From sequence record PQ850594.1: a DNA stretch of 64,000 nt, one strand, 5' to 3'. Below are positions 11,222 through 63,933 of the stretch, piece by piece. Made by a program: the position numbers and the translations under genes. Positions within the stretch are counted from its first letter, which is position 1; the number at the start of each line of letters is the position of its first letter. The notes under the pieces are model-generated. The model was not told where the DNA came from. It saw only the letters and a list, made by a program, of their open reading frames with translations, and did not search any database. Origin of the DNA: Escherichia phage AnnaHegner_Bas87.

Positions 11222-11246
11222 TCTAAGACCTAAGTCCTATCTCTTA

Positions 11247-11255
11247 TAATGTATA
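11247..11255 (+). promoter_or_regulatory. TAATGTATA phage-sigma promoter-like element
   Basis: exact TAATGTATA about 37 nt upstream of the 11292 start codon, followed by AAGGAGA RBS. Confidence 0.5.
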
Positions 11256-11291
11256 TAGGAGGTAGGACATTTTTATTTATAAGGAGACGTT

Positions 11292-14200
11292 ATGGCTAAT
11301 TTAAAATCGTGGGAAGAAGCTTCCAAAGCTCCTGCGTATCTGAATGCCTCTCCAGAGCAACAGGCTCAAATGAGAGAACAATACAAGGCAGCAGGGGGCA
11401 CTATTCCTGAGACTCAACCACAAGAGCAACCACAACAAGAAGAACGAGGTGTTATTGGGGAGTTTGCTCAAGGTGTGTCTAACGCTCTTCAATCAGGTGG
11501 TGCTAACATTGCAGCTAGTGCTGCTAAAGGTTTAGGTGGGCTGGTAGAGATTGGTGAAAACCTAACTGGTTCGGAAACAAGCTATGGTAAGCGCATTCAA
11601 GAGAACTCTAAGCAATTGCTGGAAGAACGCTTATCTAAGATAGAAGATGGTTTTGGTAAAACAGCTGGTCAGTATGCTGGTGTTGCTGCTGATATTGGTT
11701 TGACAGTTGCAAACCCTGCTGTTGCTGCTGCTGTTATCGCAGCTCGTGAAACAGGTCGTGCTTATGCTGATCAAACTCCTAAAGAAGATGAAGATAAGTC
11801 AATCTTAGATGCTGCTCTTGTTGGTGGTGCTAACTACGCTGCTCAGAAGATACTTCCGGGCATGACTGGTACAGCTTCTACTACTCTAGGTCGTGTAGGA
11901 CAAAGCGTAGCCTCTAACGCGGTTGCTGGTGCTAAGGGTGGTGCTATTGTTGGTGCTGCTGAAGCTCAGAACAAATATGGAGATGATACTACTCTAGCTA
12001 ATGTCTTAGAAGGGGCTATTGAAGAAGGTGCACTCGGTGCCGCTTATGGTGGGGCGATTGGTGGGGTTCATGGGTTAATAAGTCGTCCTAGTCCTCAAGT
12101 GTTTGATCGTACTCCTGAGCATGTTAAGACTGACATTGCTGCTGAAGATGAGGCTATTCGTAAAGCTGCTAACGCTGATGAACTTCGTGAAGCCTATGCT
12201 AAAGCTGAGAATGCTAATGCTGCCTCTGCTTTAAACCTTCTGGATGAAAATGGTTTCCGAATCACAGATGCAGTTGCTATGGACTCTCCTGCTGTTCAAC
12301 GTATATTAAATACAGATCAAAATCGTGCAGAGAAGGCTGCTACGGTTCAGAAAGATAGTTCTAACGTTCCCGGTCTTAATCCTTTAGCTTCTCCTAAGAA
12401 GACTCAAGGTAAAGCTTTTGCGGACAACGAGTACAACCAGAAACAAGCTGTGGCAATGAAAGATGCAATGGCTGACTACACTAAAGATAACACCAAAGCC
12501 CTTACTGATGTTCTAGACAACCTAGACCGAGAGTTAGTAGCTCTGAGAGCAAGTGGTGATTTTACTGGTAGTGCTATTGACATTAAAAACCGTACTCAAG
12601 CTGATCGTGATTTTATTGATGCTTATAAAACTTTTTACAGTGAAGCTAATCGTTTCAAAGCTCGTGATGGTGAAGACCTAAACAACTTCATTGATAAAGC
12701 TACTCAGTTGCAGAAGCTCTCTGAAAATGTTTCTCCAGAAATGAAGAAGGCCATTGGTGGATTAAAGAAACTAAAAGGTATGCCTGAAGGTTTTAACCCT
12801 ATCCAAGATGCTTTCACTCTGAATAATACAGCTAAGTTCATGAGTAACCAAGACCGTGGTTGGACCTCTCTGACTGATGACGGTTTTCGTGAAGCTCCGG
12901 CTCCTGTGTTAGTTAAGAATCCTCTCGGTGCAGCCAAGTATGTACTTAACCGCTTTACTTCCGATCGTGCTCGTGCTCAACGTGAGAAGCAACAGTCAGC
13001 TAATAGTGAAGCTATCCGCTCTTTGGCTAGGGCTGATTTAGAAGTACAACGAGCTAGAACTCAGGCTGAAGAAGCAAGAGCAAAAATGGAAGAAGAACCA
13101 ACTACAGAAGATATCAAATTCCGTACTCAAAATGATGCACCTTCCGAACCGGTTCGTGAGGAGCCTTCTGCTACTACTGTGACGGAAGAAATTCCTTCCT
13201 CTCCAGCTCCAGCTGAAACACCTCTTACTGCGAGGGATTTGGTTGCTCAAAGACGTGCTCTCCAACAAGCAGAGCTTAGACGTCAAGAAGCTGAAGCTGC
13301 TCAGGCTCAAGAAAGTGCTACATCAGAACCTGAACCACAGCAAGAAGCTCTTACAGCTAGAGAATTAGTAGCTCAGCGTAGGGCTGTAGCAGAGGCTAAG
13401 AAACGTCAAGAGGCAGAGGAAGCAGAACGTGCTAAAGAAGCTCCTGAGGAGGCCGTAGAAGAGCCTAAAGAGAAACCTGAGCCATTACCTGCTCGTGCTC
13501 CTAAAGCTCCTGAGAAGGCTCCTGAGCCTGTTAAACCATCACTCGGTGTAGAGCGTCTGGCTTCTATGTCAACTGCTGCCCGTCAGGCAACAAAAGATCG
13601 TGCTGACCGATTTGCTCGTTCTTTGTATTCGGCTGCTGCTAAAGCTAAAGCTACTGCGGAAAACTTCCTTTCTTATAAAGGAGACCCTAAAGAGCTTATG
13701 CGTCGTATCCGTCAGGAAGACCAAGCAAACAACACACAGCGTCATGAAGAGATGGCTAGAAACCAACTAGCTTCACAGCAAGGCATTGCTTCTGCTAAAT
13801 CTCAACATGTTCGTGCTTCTTTTGCTGATTGGGTGAAAGAACGTGGGTTGCCTTCTGATATTGCTACTAAGGCTTTACGGGCTGAAGAGAAAGGTTTAGG
13901 TGGGAACGTCACAAGTCTAGATTCACTGAAGCGAAGAGCTGAGCGTTTATATCAGAAACAAAGAGATGATGAGTTTGACCGTCTCTATAGAGAGGCTCTG
14001 GAAGAGAATAAAGCTTTTGATAAGAGAGATGCTCCTAAACTGGTAGACCAGAAGAAAGAGCTTCAGGATGAAATTGGTGCGTTGCTTGATGCTGAACCGT
14101 TACGTCCTGCTCAGAAAGATGCTATGCGTAGGATTATGGAAGACTTCGTGGAGAGCAAGTTTAAATCTTCAGAGAAAGCTGGAAGGGTTGAGGCTTTGGA

Positions 14201-15737
14201 AGTTGGTCAGATGAAGGATGTGTGGGATGGGTTTATTAATACCTATAACCGAGAAGTTAACATGTTCAACAAGGCTAACAAGAATTCTCAATACGAAGCA
14301 GCAGCTAAACACTTGCAAGCACGTCAAGAACGTCTTGAGACGCTCCGTAACAGAGCTAAGGCTCGCAGTGATGCTAAGGCAGCCATGGAGGCTGAGAAGC
14401 AGTCCTTGGAGGCTATAGCGGCTCAGAAATCAGAGATAGAGAAGATGTTCAAAGAATTGCCTGAAAGTGTCAGAGAGGCTCAGGAAGGGCGTACTTTGAA
14501 ACAGCTTGCTGCTCACCATGATAAGAACTCTCCAGTACCACCGGAGCGTTTCCGTAGTATTATTGAACGTATCCACAACGCTGAGAGTGATTACCTCGAT
14601 CGCAAACGTCGTTTGACCGAAGCAGAGGAAGATGCTCGTGAAGCTAAGTGGAACAGGATGTATGAACAGGCTGAGGAAATGAACCGTAGGTTTGATATCG
14701 ATGCTAGAGTGAAGAGAGATAAAGCTCTAAAGGAAGCTCAAGAACGAGAGAATGACTTAATGGCAGTTCAACGTCAGCGTGATGACATTCATAAGCGTTT
14801 AGTCAATACTCTGGAAGAGAAGGGAGTTTCTAGGGAAGATGCTGAAGCGTATGCTGGGTCTTACATGGATAATCGGTATGCTTTGTTAGAGAAACCAATG
14901 ACTCCAGTGGAACACCAGAATGCTCGTGCTCGTATTGAATCTGACGTAGAGAAGTTTGTTAAGAAATACGAAACAGCTACTCCAATCGAAAGAGAGATCG
15001 CTAAAGCAACTGGTGATGTAGATGGGAAACCTTCTGACTTAGATGCAGAAACATTAAAAGCTATCGAAGATGCTCGTAAAGTTGATTCCGATTTTAAGAA
15101 ACTCTTAGATGAAGAGAAGGAAATGGAGAAGATTCGTTCAGCTCTACCTGAAGATGAAAGATCTCAGGCGAACTCTGATATTCTGGAAAGTATCAAGAAA
15201 CAGGAAGATGATTTTGCTAGCAAAGCAGAGAAAGCTTTTATTGAAGGGAAGGATTTGCAGGAGTTAGCGAGTGTTGCAGAAGTTCTAGATAGGGTTCATG
15301 GTGCAGACAAGGCTGGTAACAACCGTCGATTTGTACGTGCTCTACAGACTGCTGCCGAGAACAAGAAACGTTATGGGGATAATCCAGTGGCTTGGTTTAG
15401 TGCTGATGATTACTCTGCTATTGCGAAACTTGGTGCTGCTTCGGCAGGTGGTAACAAATCTCGAGCACTTGAGAAAATCTTTGGTTCTACAGCAGAACAA
15501 GCTAAAGGGAAACTTTTAGGGCGGGATGATGTAGCTAAGATTAGGCGTGTGATTGAAGCGAATCCTAATGTTAAGATTCCTTCTTACAAGACAACTACTC
15601 GACAAGAGTACATGCAGTTCTTGGAGAAGTATAATGACGAGGGAGAGTTGAAAGTCAAACGTGGTTCTCTGTCTGACAAGTTGGAGAGAGGTAAGCGTCA
15701 AGCCAAACTCCGTGTTAGAGTTCGAGCTAAAGAGTAA
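11292..15737 (+). CDS. giant internal virion / ejection protein
   Basis: 1481 aa; Ala/Gly-rich N-terminus, long Glu/Lys/Arg coiled coil, internal ~30 aa direct repeat (LTAR-D/E-LVAQRRA). Confidence 0.45.
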   Translation: MANLKSWEEASKAPAYLNASPEQQAQMREQYKAAGGTIPETQPQEQPQQEERGVIGEFAQGVSNALQSGGANIAASAAKGLGGLVEIGENLTGSETSYGKRIQENSKQLLEERLSKIEDGFGKTAGQYAGVAADIGLTVANPAVAAAVIAARETGRAYADQTPKEDEDKSILDAALVGGANYAAQKILPGMTGTASTTLGRVGQSVASNAVAGAKGGAIVGAAEAQNKYGDDTTLANVLEGAIEEGALGAAYGGAIGGVHGLISRPSPQVFDRTPEHVKTDIAAEDEAIRKAANADELREAYAKAENANAASALNLLDENGFRITDAVAMDSPAVQRILNTDQNRAEKAATVQKDSSNVPGLNPLASPKKTQGKAFADNEYNQKQAVAMKDAMADYTKDNTKALTDVLDNLDRELVALRASGDFTGSAIDIKNRTQADRDFIDAYKTFYSEANRFKARDGEDLNNFIDKATQLQKLSENVSPEMKKAIGGLKKLKGMPEGFNPIQDAFTLNNTAKFMSNQDRGWTSLTDDGFREAPAPVLVKNPLGAAKYVLNRFTSDRARAQREKQQSANSEAIRSLARADLEVQRARTQAEEARAKMEEEPTTEDIKFRTQNDAPSEPVREEPSATTVTEEIPSSPAPAETPLTARDLVAQRRALQQAELRRQEAEAAQAQESATSEPEPQQEALTARELVAQRRAVAEAKKRQEAEEAERAKEAPEEAVEEPKEKPEPLPARAPKAPEKAPEPVKPSLGVERLASMSTAARQATKDRADRFARSLYSAAAKAKATAENFLSYKGDPKELMRRIRQEDQANNTQRHEEMARNQLASQQGIASAKSQHVRASFADWVKERGLPSDIATKALRAEEKGLGGNVTSLDSLKRRAERLYQKQRDDEFDRLYREALEENKAFDKRDAPKLVDQKKELQDEIGALLDAEPLRPAQKDAMRRIMEDFVESKFKSSEKAGRVEALEVGQMKDVWDGFINTYNREVNMFNKANKNSQYEAAAKHLQARQERLETLRNRAKARSDAKAAMEAEKQSLEAIAAQKSEIEKMFKELPESVREAQEGRTLKQLAAHHDKNSPVPPERFRSIIERIHNAESDYLDRKRRLTEAEEDAREAKWNRMYEQAEEMNRRFDIDARVKRDKALKEAQERENDLMAVQRQRDDIHKRLVNTLEEKGVSREDAEAYAGSYMDNRYALLEKPMTPVEHQNARARIESDVEKFVKKYETATPIEREIAKATGDVDGKPSDLDAETLKAIEDARKVDSDFKKLLDEEKEMEKIRSALPEDERSQANSDILESIKKQEDDFASKAEKAFIEGKDLQELASVAEVLDRVHGADKAGNNRRFVRALQTAAENKKRYGDNPVAWFSADDYSAIAKLGAASAGGNKSRALEKIFGSTAEQAKGKLLGRDDVAKIRRVIEANPNVKIPSYKTTTRQEYMQFLEKYNDEGELKVKRGSLSDKLERGKRQAKLRVRVRAKE

Positions 15738-17818: not shown

Positions 17819-18383
17819 TAATCCACTCTAAATCCTCAACTGCCTCTTCTACAGAACGGTCATTAAAGAGGAGGTAGGTTGGTAGGTTTGTTCCTTCAAT
17901 ATAAGAACGGGAGTCTCCTTCAAAGGAGCAGCCATCGCGGAGAATCTGAACTACTCGAACATGGAAGTGTTTCTCTAGTTCTTCAACTTCTGCTTTAAAT
18001 CCACCATCAGAGAAGACGATAACATCATTCTGTGATGGGATACGTTGTTGAATACTGCTAACAGCAAGTTTACCCATGCAGGTCTCACCAAACATAGGCT
18101 TCAGGTAATTCTCGCTAGTTGCAATCATCAAGTCTCGAACTGACTTACCGTCCCATTCAGGACGGCTATGTTCTTTCCACTCACGGTCGTTGTACAGCTC
18201 CATGAACTCGTAAAGAGGTAGACCTAATGCAGCAGCAGCCACTCGATACATAGGCTCCTTAAAAGCCTTTACATGCGGCCTAAACTCGGTGTTACCAAGT
18301 GTTTTCTCTAACCAAGAATTAGCGATTGTATCTTTACCACAACCCGGTGGTCCATTCAGAATTACTACTAATGGTTTACTCAT
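17787..18383 (-). CDS. P-loop kinase, putative dNMP kinase
   Basis: Walker A GPPGCGKDT at N-terminus; size consistent with phage dNMP kinases. Confidence 0.5.
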   Translation of the reverse strand: MSKPLVVILNGPPGCGKDTIANSWLEKTLGNTEFRPHVKAFKEPMYRVAAAALGLPLYEFMELYNDREWKEHSRPEWDGKSVRDLMIATSENYLKPMFGETCMGKLAVSSIQQRIPSQNDVIVFSDGGFKAEVEELEKHFHVRVVQILRDGCSFEGDSRSYIEGTNLPTYLLFNDRSVEEAVEDLEWIIEGTRRGLYV

Positions 18384-19033
18384 TATTGAATCATCCCTTG
18401 AAGATCTTCTTTATCAAAGTGCTTCTCTACTACCGCTTCATACAGATCACGATTCTCTGAATAACGACGATAGAAGGTTCCGTGTGAAATTCCCAACTCT
18501 TGCTGGATGTGATCATGTGGGATGCCGAGAAAGAGCATTGAGAACATGCTTGCCATCTTACGGTTTTCCATAATGTCACTCAGGTCTTGGAAGAAGAAAA
18601 AGATTCTAGATTCCAAGAACGGGTCTCCAGTAGAATCATGCTTATCCATCGCAATCTCTAAAGGACTTTCCCATGAATTCATCTCAGGAGGTCTAAACAT
18701 ATCAGCCTCTGGAATAGAGTAGATACGTCGGTCTCCAACTGTCTGACGATTAGAACGAATCGACCAGATGATATTCTTGACACGATAAGTCATGTGCTCA
18801 ATATCTTTTTCATCAGTGAGCAGAAGTTCTTCTTGCTTTGCAAATACAAAACGCCAAGCGTTCAGTAACACTTCCTGAGCAACATCCTCTGCCTCGTGAT
18901 AATCTTTAATGTCATACATAAAATACTTATGCACAACTTTCCAGTTCTCTCGATAAAATTCATCGAAGGTTGGATAATATTTAATAGGAATGCCATGAAT
19001 ACGATAGCGTGTGGGTGTTGTCTTCTTCTTCAT
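18383..19033 (-). CDS. phage-encoded sigma-70-family sigma factor
   Basis: region 2-like [15 protein letters not shown] and C-terminal region 4-like HTH; ATGA overlap with downstream gene. Confidence 0.7.
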
Positions 19034-19057: not shown

Positions 19058-19282
19058 TTAAACTACACAGAACAAATATATTGCTGTGTCAGGACAAGGG
19101 ATGTGATCACTAGGTTGCCTAATTCTATCCCATTCATCATCTTCTGCTATATAATAAGCCCAATAAGACTCACCATCGTTGATGAAGAATTTGAATGTTC
19201 GTCCCCAAATCTGATTATTATGTTCCCATACTGCATGAAATTGAGTAACACCTTCTGGTATTGTAAGTTCCGCTCTGATCAT
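19058..19282 (-). CDS. hypothetical protein
   Basis: ORF only. Confidence 0.35.
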   Translation of the reverse strand: MIRAELTIPEGVTQFHAVWEHNNQIWGRTFKFFINDGESYWAYYIAEDDEWDRIRQPSDHIPCPDTAIYLFCVV

Positions 19283-19578
19283 TGTATTCCTCTCTCCTTG
19301 AGAGCTTTAAGTAAACCATTATGGTTAGCAGCACAGGTTGTATAATTATCCTGATACCACTCAAGTGTTGTTGCAAATGCCACTCCCTGTGCACTCTGAA
19401 GTAAAGGGAGGTCTACATCACATTCAGCTTTTAGGTTTGTTGGTAAGGGCATTAGCTGCCTGCTGTTGTCGCTCATTGAACAAGCCATCAAACTAGAAGC
19501 GAGCAAAATCACCAAACAACTCTTTTGCTTTTTCTTTGTAAGCATTTTCTGCACCTTCTTGAGTGCTATGATAACCAA
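19279..19578 (-). CDS. o-spanin (outer-membrane lipoprotein, Rz1-like)
   Basis: signal peptide KKKQKSCLVILLASSLMAC with lipobox Cys, Pro-rich periplasmic part; true start probably internal Met. Confidence 0.5.
   Translation of the reverse strand: MVIIALKKVQKMLTKKKQKSCLVILLASSLMACSMSDNSRQLMPLPTNLKAECDVDLPLLQSAQGVAFATTLEWYQDNYTTCAANHNGLLKALKERGIQ
19448..19486 (-). repeat. duplicated spanin-junction segment, copy 2
   Basis: encodes GLFNERQQQAANAL in the HNH frame after its stop; near-synonymous copy of the i-spanin 3' end. Confidence 0.7.
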
Positions 19579-19843
19579 GCCAAATTACTTTGTTTTGATA
19601 TCCGATACGAGCACTCCATTTATTAATATCTGACCTGTATCCTACACCTTTTATTCCAGTTAAAGAGTTCTTTTGAACTATTTTATTGGCATTGTTGAGG
19701 ACAGGTGTTGCTTTTCTTAGATTGCTCCAAGAGTTATTAGACTTATCTAAATCTTTATGGTCTATTTGGAAATCGGGAATTTCTCCAGTTTTTATATACC
19801 AAGCAACTCGGTGAGCTTTGTATGTCTTTCTCTGAAAATTCAA
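19493..19843 (-). CDS. HNH homing endonuclease (HNH_3-type with AP2-like DNA-binding domain)
   Basis: HRVAW...IDHKDLDKSNN...NLR and AP2-like KWSARIGY...LGYH..EGAENAY; homologous N-terminal region extends upstream of the track start. Confidence 0.7.
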   Translation of the reverse strand: MNFQRKTYKAHRVAWYIKTGEIPDFQIDHKDLDKSNNSWSNLRKATPVLNNANKIVQKNSLTGIKGVGYRSDINKWSARIGYQNKVIWLGYHSTQEGAENAYKEKAKELFGDFARF

Positions 19844-20329: not shown

Positions 20330-20351
20330 AAAAAAGCCACCCAAAGGTGGC
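20330..20351 (-). terminator. rho-independent terminator (minus strand)
   Basis: GCCACC-CAAA-GGTGGC hairpin followed on the minus strand by a T-run. Confidence 0.6.
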
Positions 20352-20374
20352 TAAGCTATTACAAGGAGAGATTC

Positions 20375-21115
20375 TTAGAATGGAGAGTCATCCTCTTCAA
20401 AGGTTGATTGCGGCTCTTCATTAATGGTAGGGATGCTTGGAGTAGCATCTTTCTGTTCAGTGTCAGAAGCTTTAGTAACTTCACGACCAGCCAGAGGGAT
20501 ATTCTTAGCATCGTTAGCTTGAGTCAAGAGGCTACGTTGGAATGGGAAGATTGCTTGATAAGCAGCTAAGTTAGCGTCAGTCTCAGCATACGGTTCGAAG
20601 AAGATCAACTCACTACGAGGAGCACCTACCGCGTCACGATATTTAGTCGGGATTGGAGTGATGCTTTTAATGGAGTTTTTCTTCTCACCAGCTTTGTTTA
20701 CATAGGAATTAACCAGAATGTTAACAGGCTGACCTAACAGCATATCTTTAAACCAACCCAAATCACCTTTCAGTGCTTGAACACTTGGGTCGATCATTTT
20801 AATCAGATTTAGAATACCAGAGTTCTTAGCTCGTGGATTTACATCGAAAGATTTAAACTGGCAAGCAGGACGAGGGTCCAGAGGTTTGCCTTCATTATCA
20901 GTCCCTGTTGCATCTACGCCAATCAGCTCAAAAGCTAAGTCCATACGGAAAGCTGGATTCTTAGGAGTAACTGCTTTGGTTTTAGGGTCAATCCAAGGGT
21001 CACGATTGTGAACACCCAAACCTACAACACGAACAATACGTGCTTCGTACTCACCATCAGGGATTACATCGTAGTTGGATTTACGGGATACAGACAGTTC
21101 AGGGATCATAGACAT
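20375..21115 (-). CDS. putative single-stranded DNA-binding protein
   Basis: acidic C-terminal tail ending EEDDSPF resembles SSB/gp2.5 tails; adjacent to replication genes; weak inference. Confidence 0.4.
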   Translation of the reverse strand: MSMIPELSVSRKSNYDVIPDGEYEARIVRVVGLGVHNRDPWIDPKTKAVTPKNPAFRMDLAFELIGVDATGTDNEGKPLDPRPACQFKSFDVNPRAKNSGILNLIKMIDPSVQALKGDLGWFKDMLLGQPVNILVNSYVNKAGEKKNSIKSITPIPTKYRDAVGAPRSELIFFEPYAETDANLAAYQAIFPFQRSLLTQANDAKNIPLAGREVTKASDTEQKDATPSIPTINEEPQSTFEEDDSPF

Positions 21116-21174
21116 ATTAATATTTCCTTATATAGATTTAAGATTGTTGCTCTCTTTGAGCGGTTTGTATACTA

Positions 21175-21183
21175 TATACATTA
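21175..21183 (-). promoter_or_regulatory. TAATGTATA promoter-like element (minus strand)
   Basis: exact motif about 60 nt upstream of the 21115 start. Confidence 0.5.
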
Positions 21184-21245
21184 CACTTATACAGATAAGG
21201 TTCTATTATACTATAACCTTTTTGGTAGTAGATAATGACAAGTAG

Positions 21246-21254
21246 TAATGTATA
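21246..21254 (+). promoter_or_regulatory. TAATGTATA promoter-like element (plus strand)
   Basis: exact motif on the plus strand back-to-back with the minus-strand copy, facing a ~190 nt ORF-free segment. Confidence 0.35.
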
Positions 21255-21448
21255 TATGGTATAGCTAGTAAAGCTATTGCAGGCTTGTATATTGGGCAAT
21301 CATTGTAACCCTTGCAAGTACCGAAGGGCAGGAGACACCTGCGAGATAAAAATAGAGAATTAAGGAAATCCTTGATTTAGGTTGAGGACTCCTAGGACTT
21401 TGATTCTCTATTAAAATCAAAAGAAAACTTAACTTAAAACAATAACTT

Positions 21449-22087
21449 CTACCATTCTAAAAGACCTTTAAAACTAGTTTGTTCTACTGTTCTCTGATAA
21501 GGTAAGTTAGATTCTGCTTGTTTGCTTAACATCTCTTGTACTTTATCAGTAATTGGATAATCTTTTTGTAATAAAGAAGCTATCCACTCTTTCCTACTTT
21601 CCAGTTCTTTTCTAATCTCTTGCAGAGACACAGCTTTGTAATCAATTTGTTCCATAGAGGTACAAAAATATCTCCAATCTTTGATAGTAGAGTTATGAGT
21701 ATGAGCATAGATATTATACTTTCCTCTCATTTCATCAGAGTGAATAGGAATATGAGTTACCCAAAATTCTTTGTATTTATAATCACCACTGATGTGTCTA
21801 AAGACTTTCATCATATCAGGGAGAAGTTCTAATCTGTCATGATTTCCTAAGACAAGATGTTTCTCTCCCTTTACTTCAGCGATAATATCAAGTGCATATT
21901 TCTCAAACACCCAATCACCTGTAAAGAAAGTTTTATCACGTTTAGTAACATGGTCGAACGCTGCTAAGATAGCTTTGTCATGTTCTTCAATACTACTAAA
22001 CTTCTTTCTAAAATTACAGATGTTACGATGGCCTAGGTGACCATCACCTGCAAAATAAACTTCAGCCATTCTCGTATGTGTCCTCAT
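21449..22087 (-). CDS. calcineurin-like metallophosphoesterase
   Basis: GDGHLGH, GNHD and HTHN metal-binding motifs. Confidence 0.65.
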   Translation of the reverse strand: MRTHTRMAEVYFAGDGHLGHRNICNFRKKFSSIEEHDKAILAAFDHVTKRDKTFFTGDWVFEKYALDIIAEVKGEKHLVLGNHDRLELLPDMMKVFRHISGDYKYKEFWVTHIPIHSDEMRGKYNIYAHTHNSTIKDWRYFCTSMEQIDYKAVSLQEIRKELESRKEWIASLLQKDYPITDKVQEMLSKQAESNLPYQRTVEQTSFKGLLEW

Positions 22088-22247
22088 AATATGAGTAGTT
22101 GAAGGATTCAGCTTTCGTTTCAGCCTCCTCCATATCGTCTGTTTCCAGAATCACTTTCCAGCCAGAACCTTCAGGATACTCAGCCCCTTCGTCTAGCCAG
22201 ACTTTATACCGTTTAGATAGTGCAACCATCGCAGATATAATCTCCAC
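22062..22247 (-). CDS. small acidic protein (paralog of 22797-22976)
   Basis: shares Y-K/S-VW...GW.VIL.TDD.EEAE...NYS.YYE pattern with the downstream paralog. Confidence 0.4.
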   Translation of the reverse strand: MEIISAMVALSKRYKVWLDEGAEYPEGSGWKVILETDDMEEAETKAESFNYSYYEDTYENG

Positions 22248-22416
22248 TCAAGGATTCTTGTAAGAGACGAGATTGCTCATCGGCATACAAAGCATCAATT
22301 TCTTCCTTGAGCTTTGCAAGCTCTACAAAGTTGATAAGTTGCCCATAATCTGTCGCATCTGTGATAAATTGAAACAAACCTGTCGCATCATTTTTAATAA
22401 TATATTCATTAGACAT
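22213..22416 (-). CDS. hypothetical small protein
   Basis: ORF only. Confidence 0.35.
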   Translation of the reverse strand: MSNEYIIKNDATGLFQFITDATDYGQLINFVELAKLKEEIDALYADEQSRLLQESLSGDYICDGCTI

Positions 22417-24389: not shown

Positions 24390-26237
24390 TTAGTGAGTGT
24401 GATTCCAGTTTAACCCAATCTTACAGTCAGATGCCAGAGGGCATTCCATTTTGAGATACTCACCTGCTTTACGAACACACTCTTCAGTGAGGGTACGAAG
24501 TTTGTTAACATCGTCACGATGTACAGTGAACTGGCCTTCATCATGCATGTCAATAACCTTCGCACAACGAACACCATCACGCTCAATCCATTTATTAAGG
24601 AATAGCATTGCATACTTCATAACAATCGCCCCAGCGCTCTGTAAGAGAGTATTTAAGGCTTTATGAACCATAACCTTTCCAGTTGCATCTCTTCTCATTG
24701 TAATACGACGTCCATCCACACCGTAGATGTATCCACTTTGTGCTTTCTCTGTCATACGTTCAATAAGAATTGCAATACAAGGATTCTCTGCTAAGAATCT
24801 TGCCCTCATGACAGCTCCTTCATCAGAGCCACCGCCTACGATGCTTCCTAACTTAGCGTCACCAGCTCCGTAGTTGAATGCGTAGATAAATGTTTTAGCA
24901 TTATCACGAGTAGGAAGGCCAGCAAGTTTTTGGTTATGTGAGTGAATATCTCCTTCTAAAAGAATATCTCTGTACATAACAGCAGAAGCTAGACCGCGTT
25001 CAGCTTCTCGTTTCTTAGCCGGGTTGTTTTCTCGCTCTGCTTCAGCGAGCATCTCACGACACTCTTTAATAAGGTAGTGAGCTAGCATCCTCAGCTCAAG
25101 ACCAGAGCCATCGTAACCTAAGAAGATTTCACGACCAGCAGGAACATAGAACTTATAGGCACCTACAGGTTTGTCTTTCTTGCCCGGTTTTCCCACTTCG
25201 TAGATAGTGTTAGTACCCTTTCGTACGTAACACCCATCAGGGATATGGTTGGTAATGGTGAAAGGATGGTTATGACTATCGTCTGAGGAATAGTCAGATT
25301 GAAAAAGACTGCGGCACTCGTGACCAAACAAACCGCGAGAAGGAATATTAACAACAATGCGATGTTTAAAACGAAATGTCGGAGTAGCGCAGCTATTAGC
25401 TTCGGCGGACAACTTACCATCTTTACGTTCCTTGTCGATAAGCCCGCTAATCAAACCTAGCCTGTGAGCCGCTACAACGCGTCTCTTAAGCAAACTTCCT
25501 ACACCCCCTAGCTCACCCCCAAGCCCTTCTTCAAGAGTCTCCTCAAGGTTTGTAGGGGCTGTAGGCCACTTGTTTGATGTAGCCAAAGCTTTTTTGATTT
25601 CATCAAAGGTTACAGGCTTCTTCCTATTAGGGTTAAGACCTAAACCGCTGACATAGGCTTTCATATAATTGACAGTGTGATAACGGAAGTGCTTATCCAA
25701 AAACCTTCGGATATCAGCATCTATCATCTCTGCTGTCTGTTTCTCTTTAGCGTTACCTCGAATCCAAGCAGAATACCATGCAGAGTATGTACCATACTTC
25801 TTCATAGCTTTACGAATTTCAAAAGTATTCCAAGGTTTCTTAGAATAATTCCACTCTGGAGGTATAAAACCTTCATCCATCAAGGCTTCTTTAATACGTG
25901 CATCTTTTGATGGGTCAAAATCTACATACTCAACGCAAGTAAACGCCCCACCGATATCTTCTCTTTTAAGACCAACCCTATCGCAATAGAGCTGAGGCCA
26001 CTTCTGTAAAGCACCTGACTTCTTAAAAGGCTTAGCATAAGTTGAACCATCCACCCGCATTTTAGGGAGGAGAGGAATCAGTTCTTTATCAATATTGACA
26101 ATAATCTCTTTGAGAAGGTGAACAAACCACCGAGCGTTTCTTCTGTTGAAGTTGACTCCATGCTTCGCTTGTTTTGAGATTATATCAGCGACTGTCATCT
26201 CCGTTATGAAAGGTAACTTATCAGGGTTATCCATCAC
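24390..26237 (-). CDS. DNA polymerase, family A, polymerase domain only (T7 gp5-like)
   Basis: DGSGLELRMLAHY (motif A), RDNAKTFIYAFNYGAG (motif B), VIDMHDEGQF (motif C); no exonuclease domain in this ORF. Confidence 0.85.
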   Translation of the reverse strand: MMDNPDKLPFITEMTVADIISKQAKHGVNFNRRNARWFVHLLKEIIVNIDKELIPLLPKMRVDGSTYAKPFKKSGALQKWPQLYCDRVGLKREDIGGAFTCVEYVDFDPSKDARIKEALMDEGFIPPEWNYSKKPWNTFEIRKAMKKYGTYSAWYSAWIRGNAKEKQTAEMIDADIRRFLDKHFRYHTVNYMKAYVSGLGLNPNRKKPVTFDEIKKALATSNKWPTAPTNLEETLEEGLGGELGGVGSLLKRRVVAAHRLGLISGLIDKERKDGKLSAEANSCATPTFRFKHRIVVNIPSRGLFGHECRSLFQSDYSSDDSHNHPFTITNHIPDGCYVRKGTNTIYEVGKPGKKDKPVGAYKFYVPAGREIFLGYDGSGLELRMLAHYLIKECREMLAEAERENNPAKKREAERGLASAVMYRDILLEGDIHSHNQKLAGLPTRDNAKTFIYAFNYGAGDAKLGSIVGGGSDEGAVMRARFLAENPCIAILIERMTEKAQSGYIYGVDGRRITMRRDATGKVMVHKALNTLLQSAGAIVMKYAMLFLNKWIERDGVRCAKVIDMHDEGQFTVHRDDVNKLRTLTEECVRKAGEYLKMECPLASDCKIGLNWNHTH

Positions 26238-27174: not shown

Positions 27175-27492
27175 TTAACTTGAGCTTAAAGCTCCTTTTC
27201 GACCGCCTGCTGATTTTCCAGCACGATCTCCACTTTTGCCGCCGTTCGAGCGATTTCGAGAGACTGATTCAACACGTAAGTTACTTGACGCATTAGAACC
27301 TCCCGACTTGATTGATCGTTTGTGTCCAACATCTTTACCTCGGACAGCAGCTTTTCCATCGCGCTTTTCAACGATGCGACGTGCACGGTGGCGCTGAGCA
27401 TCTCCGCTCTTGCTACCAACGCCGGTCTCACCCCTTGCGATTGCAGTTCTTCGTTCTTGTGCATAATCACGTTTCGCCTTATCGGTCATCAC
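27175..27492 (-). CDS. basic Gly/Lys/Arg-rich protein, KGG-repeat-like
   Basis: strong TAAGGAG RBS and TAATGTATA motif upstream; preferred over overlapping alternative-frame ORF 27186-27470. Confidence 0.45.
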   Translation of the reverse strand: MMTDKAKRDYAQERRTAIARGETGVGSKSGDAQRHRARRIVEKRDGKAAVRGKDVGHKRSIKSGGSNASSNLRVESVSRNRSNGGKSGDRAGKSAGGRKGALSSS

Positions 27493-27524: not shown

Positions 27525-27533
27525 TATACATTA
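27525..27533 (-). promoter_or_regulatory. TAATGTATA promoter-like element (minus strand)
   Basis: exact motif in the 44 nt gap between the PhoH stop and the 27492 start. Confidence 0.5.
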
Positions 27534-32464: not shown

Positions 32465-32795
32465 CCCCTTCTAAGTTAGTTGAATTAGCTACATTACGAG
32501 CAATGTTATCCATGACCTGCTGGGTAATAACAATGCAATTCTGTGGGTCTACAGACTTAGAACGCCCCATTTCAGGGTCATAAACCTTAACACGCTTGGC
32601 TGTTGAGCCAGTAACTTGCAACACTTTGAGAAGATAACCTTGGTTTCCAATAGACCATGCAACAACATCACGATTCTTGATATAACGACCAAGCATATCA
32701 CGATGATAGAACTGCTGCATAACTTTAGCTTTGCTAATCTCTTCAGATGGCGGGGCCACTTTACTCAAATCTAACATAACTCTCTCCTGTTTCAT
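32448..32795 (-). CDS. hypothetical protein
   Basis: AGGAGAG RBS; AAATGTATA promoter-like variant upstream. Confidence 0.4.
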   Translation of the reverse strand: MKQERVMLDLSKVAPPSEEISKAKVMQQFYHRDMLGRYIKNRDVVAWSIGNQGYLLKVLQVTGSTAKRVKVYDPEMGRSKSVDPQNCIVITQQVMDNIARNVANSTNLEGDAPNA

Positions 32796-32813: not shown

Positions 32814-32822
32814 ATATACATT
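32814..32822 (-). promoter_or_regulatory. promoter-like variant AAATGTATA (minus strand)
   Basis: one-mismatch variant of TAATGTATA about 20 nt upstream of the 32795 start. Confidence 0.3.
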
Positions 32823-32847
32823 TGAGAGTTATCATATCTACTACCAA

Positions 32848-36001: not shown

Positions 36002-37785
36002 GGACGTGCCTCCCCTTCTTGTGAAAGTAAGGAAGCTGCATCTTCTCCGTTGGTGACTGTAAACGGATTATCTTCATCAACTTCATGATCTTCTCGTTCC
36101 ACAAGACGACCTGTTTCGTTAATGTATTTGGTATAGCAAACCCCTGTCTGTCCATAGTTACGCTCTTTGAGCAGACGTATGATTGACAAGTTTTTACCTA
36201 ACCCATCCGCTTGTTTATTACGTTCGAAACCGATAATACATTGACACCAGCGCATTAATGAACGTGAGCCAGTAAACTGTACTTCTTTAACCTGACCACC
36301 TTCTTCGTGAGGGGCACCGCCCGCCGGAGCATTCAAGTGAGATAACACAAAAGCAGTGAAGTCTAATTCCTTACACATACCAGCAAGCTCTGAAGCAATC
36401 TTACTGATTTCTGTATTCACTTCGGATGGAGTTAAGTGAGATACCAATGCAGTGATGTTATCAAGAATGATAAATTTACACTGATTCTCAACTACCCAAA
36501 AGCGAATACACTGCTTAATGTCTTCCCATTCGTTCTGCCCAAAGTTGTCATACAAGAAAAACTTATCAGCGTATCGAAGTGCTTCATCTCGTAGCTGGCT
36601 TTCTTCGTACTCAACATCTGGTCGGTGGAAAGGTACAGATGCTGACTTACCTGCAATGTTCTTAACAGACATGCCTACCTTCTCTTCCAAGAAGAAGCCA
36701 CCACCATTAAAACCATGCTCAAGGCAAAGCCATGCTACCAGTTCGTGTGCGATTAAGGTTTTACCTGAACCAACACCACCGCCGATTGCAACCATCTCTC
36801 CCCAACGAATACCGAAAGTCATGTCGTTAAGAGTTTTCCACGGATAAGGGATACCCCACTCCGCTTTCTTCAGAGCATCTTCAAGGCAATCAAAAACTGT
36901 AACAGCGCCGGCAGGAGATTCCCGCTTAGCTGAATATTTCAGATTGTTGAAAAGCTCTTGACCTCTCCCTGCAAGTAACATGTCGTTTGCATCTTTGATT
37001 TCCTTTTCTTGTCCGTTATAAGTGAACGTACCTTTTGGAATTCTTGCAAACTTGACATGTGGGTACAGAGAACGACCTTTAGTCAATGCAATCTCTCCTG
37101 CATCATCATTGTCCATGCAGAGTACAATCTCCTCGAAACCATTAATAAAATCACGATTTCTTGACAACACAGAAGAGATTGAACCTGCACCGAACGGAAG
37201 AGAGACACAAGCAGGTTTGATATTAGTTGCGTTTGTGAACGCAGTAAGTACGTGGAATCCAGACATACAAGAGAGTGGGTCTTCGAAGATGAAGAGCTTC
37301 TTATTGTAAACATCGCCACGTTGTGCTTGAGCCATACCAAATAAGTCGGCTTCTTTCACATTACCTACATAATAGAACTTCTTGCTGTCTAGAAGTTTTA
37401 CTTCATATCCAACAATATTCCCATCACGTTCACGAGGGAAGAAGTAGCTGTCAGGAGTTTGACCATCTGTTTGGCTTAAACCGATACGGCATCCATAACG
37501 TTCAGATACAGCTTTAGGAATTAAGCGACGAGTCAACTCTCCCTGAGGAAGCTCTAAGCAATCGTCTAAGACTTCTCGGAGTTCTTCAGGGGACAGCTCT
37601 TTCTTTTCATTAGGAGTGGGCGTCGTTCCTTTCTCGAAGATTTCATACGCACCACATCTGTTACATGAACCCCACTCCTCACCGGACTCTTCATTTCGGA
37701 AGAGAATCATGTGATTGCGGGTCTTATCACGACCATGAGAGATACACTCTTTACAGCCTGTGTCTCCCAAAATGATCTTTGACAT
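35995..37785 (-). CDS. primase-helicase (T7 gp4-like)
   Basis: N-terminal zinc ribbon CKEC...CNRC, TOPRIM region, DnaB-type Walker [10 protein letters not shown]. Confidence 0.85.
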
Positions 37786-43859: not shown

Positions 43860-44482
43860 AATGATTCCACCAACTCTACATTATATGATGACAGGTCTGA
43901 AGAAATATGCTTGAACTTCTCCAGAAGGTTTAAAGATTGACGACCATTGTCGCCATAACCAGCTTCAAGAAGCACGTTTCCAACGTAAGCCCCTTTGTAA
44001 TAAACTTTTCCATCGACAGGATTGATATAGATGAAACGAGTAACCAACCCTTCAAACTCTGGATTAAACAGGTTGTACACCAAATCACCCGGAATCGAAC
44101 GTCCGAGAGAAGGTGGAGTACCACGAAGTTTATTCCCCATCAAGCCTTTAGCTCGCTGACGAACAGGGTTGATATGGGTCCAGCTCACCATGTTATTACC
44201 ATGCTGAAGGTATCCTACATCTGGAGACTCCAGAATGAGGCTGTGATCAAACACTGGGATATTACTAACAATCTGACGTTCAAACTGACCTTCGGAGTTT
44301 TTAGTCCAGCGTTCCGCCTCAAACACTAAAGACATTTCAGCGTCGTGTGAGTAGTCGTCAATATCAAAGTTACCTTGCTGACGAACATCAAGCACATATA
44401 GAGGGAGGTTTTTACCATCAGGTGATCGCTGGGCAATCCATGTTCCACAATAATAGTGTTGAAAATCTCTTAACAAGCTCAC
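43856..44482 (-). CDS. hypothetical protein in ligase cluster
   Basis: ORF only; overlaps neighbours by 4 nt. Confidence 0.4.
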   Translation of the reverse strand: MSLLRDFQHYYCGTWIAQRSPDGKNLPLYVLDVRQQGNFDIDDYSHDAEMSLVFEAERWTKNSEGQFERQIVSNIPVFDHSLILESPDVGYLQHGNNMVSWTHINPVRQRAKGLMGNKLRGTPPSLGRSIPGDLVYNLFNPEFEGLVTRFIYINPVDGKVYYKGAYVGNVLLEAGYGDNGRQSLNLLEKFKHISSDLSSYNVELVESL

Positions 44483-51384: not shown

Positions 51385-51460
51385 TGGTGCACCCTACAGG
51401 ATTCGAACCTGTAACCAACGACTTAGAAGGTCGCTGCTCTATCCATTGAGCTAAGGGTGC
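51385..51460 (-). tRNA. tRNA-Arg (anticodon UCU), with encoded CCA
   Basis: cloverleaf folded by hand: 7 bp acceptor stem GCACCCT/AGGGTGC, D-arm GCTC/GAGC, anticodon loop CUUCUAA, T-arm ACAGG-TTCGAAT-CCTGT. Confidence 0.85.
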
Positions 51461-61283: not shown

Positions 61284-61311
61284 ACTATATATTAAAGGAA
61301 AAACCTGTCAA
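61284..61311 (-). promoter_or_regulatory. sigma-70-like promoter (TTGACA-16 bp-TATAGT), leftward, within 85 bp element copy B
   Basis: about 45 nt upstream of the 61238 start. Confidence 0.45.
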
Positions 61312-63433: not shown

Positions 63434-63462
63434 TTATAACGATAATGTAGAAGGAGTATAAG

Positions 63463-63933
63463 ATGTTTGGAGAAAAAGGAGAACTCACGCCTGCACAGGT
63501 AGCTGAGATTACAGGAAGACTGCCCGGAGTAACGGAAGAACTTGAATCCAAGGGCATGGAACCAAGCACAGGGAAGTTCACTAAAGGTAATAAATTTGGA
63601 CGTCCCAAAGGTAGTAGAGGTAAATTGACACAGCTCATGCTCGATCGTGTTGCTGCTAGTCATCTGTCTCCCGATGAAGTGTTGATTCAGATTTATGAAG
63701 ATCCAAGTATTCCACCCGATCTTAGATTCAAGGCTGCAAGTAAAGTCGCTGATCTGGTATATCCTAAGGCAGCTTCTGTTGAGGTTAAGATTGAGGAAGA
63801 GAATGTAATCAATGAAGAATCACTGAACGCACAGATTCGAGACTTCTTGACTGGTGCACTGAAAGTGGATGTGCTACCTCCAGAGGACTCTGAGGACGCT
63901 GAAAAGGAGGAGGAGGAAGCGGACGAGAGTTAA
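63463..63933 (+). CDS. putative DNA-binding protein, possible small terminase subunit
   Basis: GGAG RBS; basic KGNKFGRPKGSRGK patch and acidic C-terminal tail; position ahead of the missing packaging genes; weak. Confidence 0.3.
   Translation: MFGEKGELTPAQVAEITGRLPGVTEELESKGMEPSTGKFTKGNKFGRPKGSRGKLTQLMLDRVAASHLSPDEVLIQIYEDPSIPPDLRFKAASKVADLVYPKAASVEVKIEEENVINEESLNAQIRDFLTGALKVDVLPPEDSEDAEKEEEEADES

Follow-up and report, generated by a model that had tools for sequence, protein, structure and literature searches.

How does a phage with T7-like replication genes read its middle and late genes if a sigma factor stands in place of a phage RNA polymerase? The question is raised by a single open reading frame (ORF) in Escherichia phage AnnaHegner_Bas87 (PQ850594.1), of which a stretch of 64,000 nucleotides, referred to below as the window, was analysed. 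We conclude with high confidence that this ORF encodes the phage's own promoter-specificity subunit, an ortholog of phiEco32 gp36. Orthology, conservation of contact residues, orthology and position of the promoters, presence of the partner gene and the failure to detect an RNA polymerase (RNAP) gene are the direct results of the analysis. The features discussed are collected in Table 1.

Table 1. Features of the sigma factor system in the window, in order of position
Feature	Coordinates	Strand	Evidence or context
Hairpin enclosing the P26 -10 element, 15 bp, followed by a U-run	11234..11268	+	Folding energy
Late promoter, P26 ortholog, TAATGTATA	11247..11255	+	Predicted start ~11262; next start codon 36 nt away
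Phage sigma factor gene, phiEco32 gp36 ortholog	18383..19033	-	ORF, PHROG 1740, PDB 9m7y_F
Terminator-like hairpin with T-run, directly after the gene 40 homolog	20335..20352	-	Consensus scan only
Middle promoter, P40 ortholog, TAATGTATA	21175..21183	-	Predicted start ~21168; 59 nt before gene 20375-21115
Px, candidate seventh gp36-type promoter, GGTAGTAGATA + 11 nt + TAATGTATA	21224..21254	+	Predicted start ~21261
Conserved non-coding region	21261..21412	+	14-genome alignment, consensus folding
Middle promoter, P58 ortholog, TAATGTATA	27525..27533	-	32 nt before gene 27175-27492
Middle promoter, P68 ortholog, GGTAGTAGATA + 11 nt + AAATGTATA	32815..32845	-	Before gp68 homolog, ATG near 32776
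gp79 homolog, 80 aa	38694..38936	-	tblastn, PDB 9m7y_G, PHROG 8339
Late promoter, P6 ortholog, TAATGTAGA	63443..63451	+	Upstream of gene 63463-63933; preceded by a terminator hairpin

Genome context

The window derives from a phiEco32-like podophage (Gordonclarkvirinae). Over 20 kb around the sigma gene its identity is 97% to Phage NC-B and about 95% to EK010, SU7 and phages related to these, and all 98 matching records are phiEco32-like podophages of E. coli or Shigella from the same subfamily. Collinearity with phiEco32 extends from ~14,797 via the genome end to ~2,237, and the ~12.6 kb of the genome beyond the window are the counterpart of phiEco32 structural genes 7-16. Genes lie on the plus strand at both ends of the window, up to ~15.8 kb and beyond ~62.1 kb, and on the minus strand in between. 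Non-coding DNA makes up 9.4% of the window.

A sequence-only reading of this DNA had described the sigma gene as lying among T7-like replication genes, and a family A DNA polymerase, a DnaB-like primase/helicase and an exonuclease were indeed found there. No RNAP domain was detected among the 17 largest ORFs scanned (the 10 largest with Pfam, further mid-sized and large ones with PHROGs), and these searches returned no phage-type RNA polymerase family, either T7-like single-subunit or N4-like. Host RNAP serves phiEco32 throughout (PMC12276001). Given the collinearity with that phage and the lack of an RNAP domain in the scanned ORFs, the description of a sigma factor in place of a phage RNA polymerase is apt.

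The sigma factor and its contact residues

The sigma gene encodes 216 amino acids and starts with an ATG, 6 nt downstream of the Shine-Dalgarno sequence AAGGA; at its other end, the TAA stop shares bases with the ATG of the following gene. The boundaries proposed from sequence are exact; the strand is corrected here to minus. The protein matches PHROG 1740, 'RNA polymerase sigma factor', with E = 1e-43, and chain F of PDB 9m7y, phiEco32 gp36, with E = 1e-117 across residues 1-215. Its global identity to gp36 is 80.4%. Proteins 100% identical to it are encoded by four GenBank phages, where the gene is labelled 'hypothetical protein' or is unannotated.

Curated sigma profiles recognise the protein only below their cut-offs. 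The Pfam model Sigma70_r2 reaches 19.1 bits where 24 are required, and TIGR02937 (sigma70-ECF) 20.6 where 42.9 are required, the latter with a sub-threshold alignment that spans residues 23-191. All NCBIfam ECF models fall far below their cut-offs. The Sigma70_r4 profile gives no match, and residues 148-201 show only weak helix-turn-helix-like matches to DUF1492 and TetR_N. Regions 2 and 4 had both been called recognisable in the protein; this holds only at sub-threshold scores. The placement in the sigma70 family is therefore based on the homolog with 80% identity whose structure has been solved.

In the cryo-EM study of gp36 (PMC12276001, 2025), the sigma2-like domain at the N terminus is placed on the clamp helices, the linker follows a path like that of sigma3.2, and the sigma4-like domain at the C terminus is placed on the flap tip helix. 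The protein reads AATGTA through base-specific contacts, and transcription is lost on mutation. The study lists the residues touching the clamp, the -10 and -35 elements, the flap tip helix and gp79, and 22 of these 23 residues are identical in the window protein, the sole change being the conservative substitution of M138 by L. Identity covers the acidic patch for the clamp helices (D44, E47, E49, D50, E54), the -10 contacts (E79, H80, Y83, R84, W90, S91, S94, N95), the -35 contacts Y186 and R187, for which the C-terminal numbering is shifted by +2, and, apart from position 138, the groove residues for the flap tip helix and gp79. With contact residues conserved to this degree, the same promoter specificity is expected of the window sigma factor. 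From the solved structure of gp36 we infer that the sigma2-like and sigma4-like folds of the window protein would likewise occupy the clamp helices and the flap tip helix. The 20% sequence difference from gp36 could in principle shift the specificity, though the DNA-contact residues all match.

Promoters of the phage sigma factor

Promoters of phiEco32 were reportedly mapped by Pavlova in 2012. Later papers count six mapped gp36-dependent promoters in this phage, those of the late genes 6, 13 and 26 and of the middle genes 40, 58 and 68. The consensus tAATGTAtA precedes the start site by 6-8 nt (PMC8948821, PMC4281155, PMC4331800), and the sequence-only reading, which had taken the motif for that of the phiEco32 sigma factor, was right on this point. 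Table S3 of PMC8948821 gives P6 as TAATGTAgA, P68 as aAATGTATA, and P13, P26, P40 and P58 as TAATGTATA; exactly these were located in the phiEco32 genome. Orthologs of five of them (P6, P26, P40, P58 and P68) are present in the window, with the same published 9-mer variants at syntenic positions, and P13 lies outside it. The -10 contacts put the 9-mer at positions -15 to -7, and the predicted +1 nucleotide is a purine at every site.

Exact copies of TAATGTATA occur four times in the window, at 11247 (+), 21175 (-), 21246 (+) and 27525 (-). The shuffle control gives an expectation of 0.67 copies, and one of 100 shuffles reaches four. All four copies fall in gaps that are unannotated in relatives, for which random placement has a probability of about 8e-5 at the 9.4% non-coding share. 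Enrichment disappears when one mismatch is allowed (25 sites against 20 expected), so the signal sits in the exact copies and their location. Comparison with the published phiEco32 promoters identifies three of the four exact copies as the orthologs of P26, P40 and P58. These three are co-oriented with the genes they precede, 32-59 nt before the start codon, in agreement with the earlier view that the motifs stand upstream of structural and middle genes; the copy at 21246 (+) departs from it.

The gene downstream of the P26 ortholog is a virion gene of 1481 amino acids (11292-15737), and the context of this promoter is identical in phiEco32, where it is found at 26014. The hairpin around its -10 element has a minimum free energy of -21.2 kcal/mol (z = -3.9) in the window and -22.8 kcal/mol (z = -4.6) in phiEco32, and its stem is kept between the two phages despite differing sequence. 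It looks like a terminator for transcripts arriving from upstream. The terminator-like hairpin after the gene 40 homolog has a 7-bp stem with five G-C pairs and a TTTTTCG tail.

The orthologs of P68 (32815, minus) and P6 (63443, plus), each with one mismatch to the exact motif, had been missed in the sequence-only reading. The TAATGTAGA of the P6 ortholog is the variant published for P6. The P68 ortholog likewise has the 9-mer variant of the published P68, and its G-37 and A-34 agree with what R187 and Y186, respectively, contact in the cryo-EM structure. Other near-matches were rejected as promoters. A minus-strand TAATGTAGA at 43875, 15 nt before a start codon, is attributed to chance and has no counterpart in phiEco32; TAATATATA at 61286 (minus) lacks the essential G at -11; one-mismatch matches inside coding DNA were dismissed.

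Promoters aligned by their 9-mers gave a set of 16 sequences, including versions of P40 and P58 whose upstream sequence is non-homologous between lineages. A-34 is present in 16 of 16 and a purine at -37 in 15; T-38 is present in 12 of the 13 sequences of the window and phiEco32 sets. The conserved A-34 and the purine at -37 fit the cryo-EM contacts, in which Y186 meets the T opposite A-34 and R187 meets N7 of the -37 purine. The supposedly single-element gp36 promoters may, as a weak and post hoc generalisation from these alignments, have a common minimal -35 signature, consisting of T-38, a purine at -37/-36 and an invariant A-34.

The partner protein gp79

The window encodes a homolog of the gp36 partner gp79, 76% identical to the phiEco32 protein by tblastn, with E = 5e-37 to PDB 9m7y_G and E = 1e-48 to PHROG 8339. 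Read from the alignment, its gp36-contacting residues are still hydrophobic (L6I, L9, V10I, M14). In phiEco32, gp79 displaces region 4 of sigma70 and so turns host and early promoters off; it also stabilises the C-terminal domain of gp36 and raises transcription from P26 and P68 3- to 4-fold. The co-factor had not appeared in the sequence-only reading. Most deposited relatives call both the sigma gene and the gp79 homolog 'hypothetical protein', which makes the present identification useful mainly for annotation.

Px, a seventh promoter candidate

The fourth exact copy of the motif, at 21246 (+), faces away from the neighbouring P40 in the 333-bp gap (21116-21448) that separates the gene 40 homolog from that of gene 41. 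The element to which it belongs, designated Px, points against the middle genes and has no gene downstream in its own orientation. It carries the same -35 box, GGTAGTAGATA, as P68 at the same 11-nt spacing, with G-37 and A-34 at the contacted positions. This bipartite pattern occurs twice in the window, in Px and P68, against 0.03 occurrences expected even with three mismatches. An independent case is provided by ES17-type phages, where P40 itself has GGTAGT at -37 to -32. In an IMG/VR scan for the pattern, mainly phiEco32-group contigs were recovered, and the one outlier (L007), which has no similarity to the window, was set aside as a chance match.

The arrangement is the same in phiEco32, at 36704 (plus). 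All 14 relatives compared, which represent both genera and 12 distinct sequences, retain both boxes of Px, two of them with the variant GGTAGTATATC. At Px, only TGGTAGTA-AT (-38 to -28) and TAATGTATATA (-15 to -5) are invariant across the 14 genomes. The spacer and the flanks vary, and the distance to P40 is 52, 62, 63 or 183 bp. Px fits the extended consensus TAATGTATATA better than P6, P58 and P68 do. It is not among the six promoters of Table S3 of PMC8948821 and later papers, and our literature search turned up neither a transcriptome nor an antisense report for these phages. Px is a candidate whose function as a promoter is probable but unproven.

The DNA downstream of Px is conserved. 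From the predicted start it contains, in order, a hairpin, a swappable module that exists in two unrelated versions, and a block of ~95 bp with almost no variation between genera that share only ~75% identity in coding DNA. The hairpin has two compensatory pairs and G-U pairs workable on the plus strand only, and 100% of its alignment cells are paired. Consensus folding of the region is more favourable on the plus strand (-31.5 kcal/mol) than on the minus strand (-23.6 kcal/mol), and the first hairpin forms on the plus strand only. Most of the 98 related records match the gap as a whole at 82-100% identity, and two at 60-80%. A mechanically called ORF overlapping the gap is spurious, as relatives differ by indels of 1, 2 and 1 nt in the ~95-bp block, which exclude coding, and by the swapped module. 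A search of the gp40-gp41 gap with Rfam at gathering and relaxed thresholds assigned it to no family, the only hit being a sub-threshold 6A RNA (E = 0.63).

On the minus strand, the same DNA contains a long stem followed by TTTTTAT, so that it may also serve the gene 41 operon as a terminator. This bears on an alternative in which Px is a passive relic, kept as upstream sequence of P40 or as DNA of the minus-strand terminator, and silent in vivo. We regard this as quite possible, only somewhat short of an even chance. It accords with the position of Px outside the six experimentally mapped promoters and with the lack of a co-oriented downstream gene, and a consensus scan of 20900-22400 found neither a plus-strand terminator for a Px transcript nor a convincing sigma70 promoter. 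Conservation of the whole gap also means that part of the conservation of Px may be hitch-hiking. Against this, the boxes are kept in all 14 genomes while the sequence around them varies and the distance to P40 changes more than threefold, and the -35 box stays at a fixed 11 nt from the -10 box in each. A relic would, moreover, match the extended consensus better than three of the orthologs of mapped promoters, carry the exact -35 box of P68, whose contacts are essential in vitro, and be followed by a consensus structure that favours the plus strand, the direction of Px.

The reading of Px as a functional, previously undescribed seventh promoter of the phage sigma factor, which makes a conserved, structured non-coding RNA of ~150-190 nt or primes a replication origin, is put forward tentatively, at distinctly less than even probability. 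An RNA initiated at ~21261 would run antisense to the upstream operon, across its 3' end and terminator region. As another possibility, Px might prime DNA replication at a transcription-activated origin, as in T7. GC skew in the window follows gene orientation and gives no origin signal. A tRNA was rejected as the target of Px, the only one in the window, Arg-TCT (51385-51460, minus), being far from it. If functional, Px would extend a model system credited so far with exactly six phage-sigma promoters by an antisense or non-coding transcription unit, or by an origin, and would be a second natural example of the -35 contact seen by cryo-EM. It is the only possibly new element here, and together with its downstream conserved non-coding region it forms the sole lead.

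A model of transcription

Core RNAP binding, promoter use and timing can be proposed for this phage from published work on phiEco32. By that analogy, the host sigma70 holoenzyme would transcribe in the early phase, after which the sigma protein and the 80-aa gp79 homolog would be made. The gp79 homolog, bound to the clamp of host RNAP, would eject region 4 of sigma70, turning off host and early phage promoters, and would also prop up the C-terminal domain of the phage sigma factor. The sigma2-like N-terminal domain on the clamp helices would read AATGTA at -14 to -9 and melt the DNA from -11, and the sigma4-like C-terminal domain on the flap tip helix would touch the -35 region at -37 and -34. 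Transcription would then be directed from P6 and P26 on the plus strand (late, virion genes) and from P40, P58 and P68 on the minus strand (middle genes). With the phage sigma directing host RNAP to the phage promoters, no RNA polymerase of the phage's own would be needed.

That TAATGTATA instead serves the host sigma70 holoenzyme, for instance as a TG-extended -10-like element, the ORF being a transcription factor or an anti-sigma, is very improbable: the motif is rich in A and T and has TG ahead of TATA, the protein scores below the curated sigma cut-offs, and the SU10 paper speculates that sigma70 may also read middle genes, yet the register of TGTATATA does not fit TGnTATAAT, gp36 occupies the sigma2, sigma3.2 and sigma4 positions on RNAP and reads AATGTA, on whose contacts transcription depends, through residues that are all identical in the window protein, gp79 shuts off the sigma70 holoenzyme, and transcription by core RNAP and gp36 in the absence of sigma70 has already been demonstrated for phiEco32.

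Comparison with known systems

The primary replication origin of T7 consists of the phage promoters phi1.1A/B followed by an AT-rich stretch. The Px locus resembles it in combining a candidate phage-specific promoter, T7-like replication proteins and a conserved non-coding region that ends AT-rich. The likeness is an analogy only, and GC skew follows gene orientation. In T4, AsiA/MotA and the late proteins gp55/gp33 are likewise small phage proteins that re-target host RNAP and remodel or replace region 4 of sigma70, and T4 late promoters are dominated by a -10-like element. The proteins are unrelated, however, and T4 middle transcription keeps sigma70 on the enzyme, whereas the window encodes a complete replacement sigma factor with both sigma2-like and sigma4-like domains.

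Salmonella phage 7-11 has a phage-encoded sigma factor, gp47, a phiEco32-like genome and similar promoter positions (PMC8948821). [quoted passage not shown] The window clearly belongs to the phiEco32 subgroup and not to that of phage 7-11.

The closest known system is gp36/gp79 of phiEco32 (Savalia 2008; Pavlova 2012; Xu et al. NAR 2025; PDB 9m7y, 9m7z). It is already known in detail from genetics, biochemistry and a 2025 structure, and the main finding here is the re-identification of a textbook-level phage strategy, a replacement sigma factor combined with a sigma70-displacing co-factor. The likeness comprises the 80%-identical sigma factor, the 76%-identical gp79, matching 9-mer variants at syntenic positions, the lack of a phage RNAP, and late genes on the plus strand with middle and early genes on the minus strand. 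The differences are that phiEco32 is a Kuravirus, whereas the window falls in the Suseptimavirus or NC-B-like branch; that the linker of the window sigma has a 2-aa insertion relative to gp36 (residues ~118-119); and that different genes lie between the sigma gene and gene 40. Nothing in the window is different in kind from phiEco32.

Promoter elements of the gp36 type

The gap between the homologs of genes 40 and 41 contains a seventh site of the type served by gp36, the sigma factor of phiEco32. This candidate promoter, Px, carries an exact TAATGTATA together with a −35 box of the P68 type, and is missing from the six published gp36 promoters (P6, P13, P26, P40, P58 and P68). Px points away from P40, opposite to the direction of the genes, and is followed on its 3' side by a conserved, structured non-coding region.

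The surroundings of Px are variable among relatives. In ES17-type phages a 120-bp insertion, with a small annotated ORF inside it, separates P40 from Px and equips P40 with a GGTAGT box of its own, at −37. Downstream of Px, a separate swappable module of approximately 45–70 bp exists in two versions, one shared by ECBP2, ES17 and EcM-vB1 and the other present in the remaining genomes.

The 'single-element' gp36 promoters bear a weak −35 signature, as indicated by base counts in the promoter sequences tabulated from the window, phiEco32, ES17 and another related genome (L014). Position −34 is A in all 16 sequences and position −37 a purine in 15 of 16, while T occupies −38 in 12 of the 13 promoters of the window and phiEco32. 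The signature agrees with the cryo-EM contacts. The late promoters P13 and P26 have TAAGACCTA in common at −38 to −30.

Coordinates of promoter-associated features and neighboring genes
Feature	Window	Strand	Counterpart or remark
Px and downstream non-coding region	21224-21412	+	phiEco32 36682-36870
Insertion between P40 and Px	aligned to 21184-21245		ES17 13063-13245; also EcM-vB1
−38 to −34 region (examples)	Px 21223-21227; P68 32842-32846
Hairpin enclosing P26 −10 element	11234-11281	+	phiEco32 26001-26048
Intrinsic-terminator-like hairpin	20335-20352	−	7 bp, 5 G-C pairs, T-run
P6 and start of gene 6	63443-63465	+
Genes between sigma gene and gene 40	19058-19843	−
tRNA-Arg, anticodon TCT	51385-51460	−	early region

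Hairpins and transcript starts

The −10 element of P26 is enclosed by a 15-bp hairpin, followed by AUUUUUAUUUAU, with folding z-scores of −3.9 for the window and −4.6 for phiEco32, and the stem is preserved although the two sequences differ. This terminator-like structure would fold in transcripts arriving from upstream; those initiated at P26, with a start near 11262, have their 5' end within the 3' arm and would avoid the hairpin. Since a good intrinsic-terminator-like hairpin immediately follows the gene 40 homolog, P40 may yield mainly monocistronic transcripts of gene 40. Expression of the sigma gene, which lies 1.3 kb past this second hairpin, would require read-through or another promoter.

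Only 11 nt separate the end of the P6 −10 9-mer from the annotated ATG of gene 6, leaving a predicted leader of about 5 nt, with the AGGAG Shine-Dalgarno upstream of the predicted start site. phiEco32 shows this layout too. The implication is either nearly leaderless translation of gene 6 from P6 transcripts or a wrongly assigned start codon for this gene.

Comparison with phiEco32

The early regions of both phages carry one tRNA-Arg (TCT). The interval from the sigma gene to gene 40 differs in gene content from that of phiEco32: in the window it includes a 116-aa ORF that looks, by eye, like an HNH/AP2-type homing endonuclease, and in phiEco32 it holds the macro-domain gene 37.
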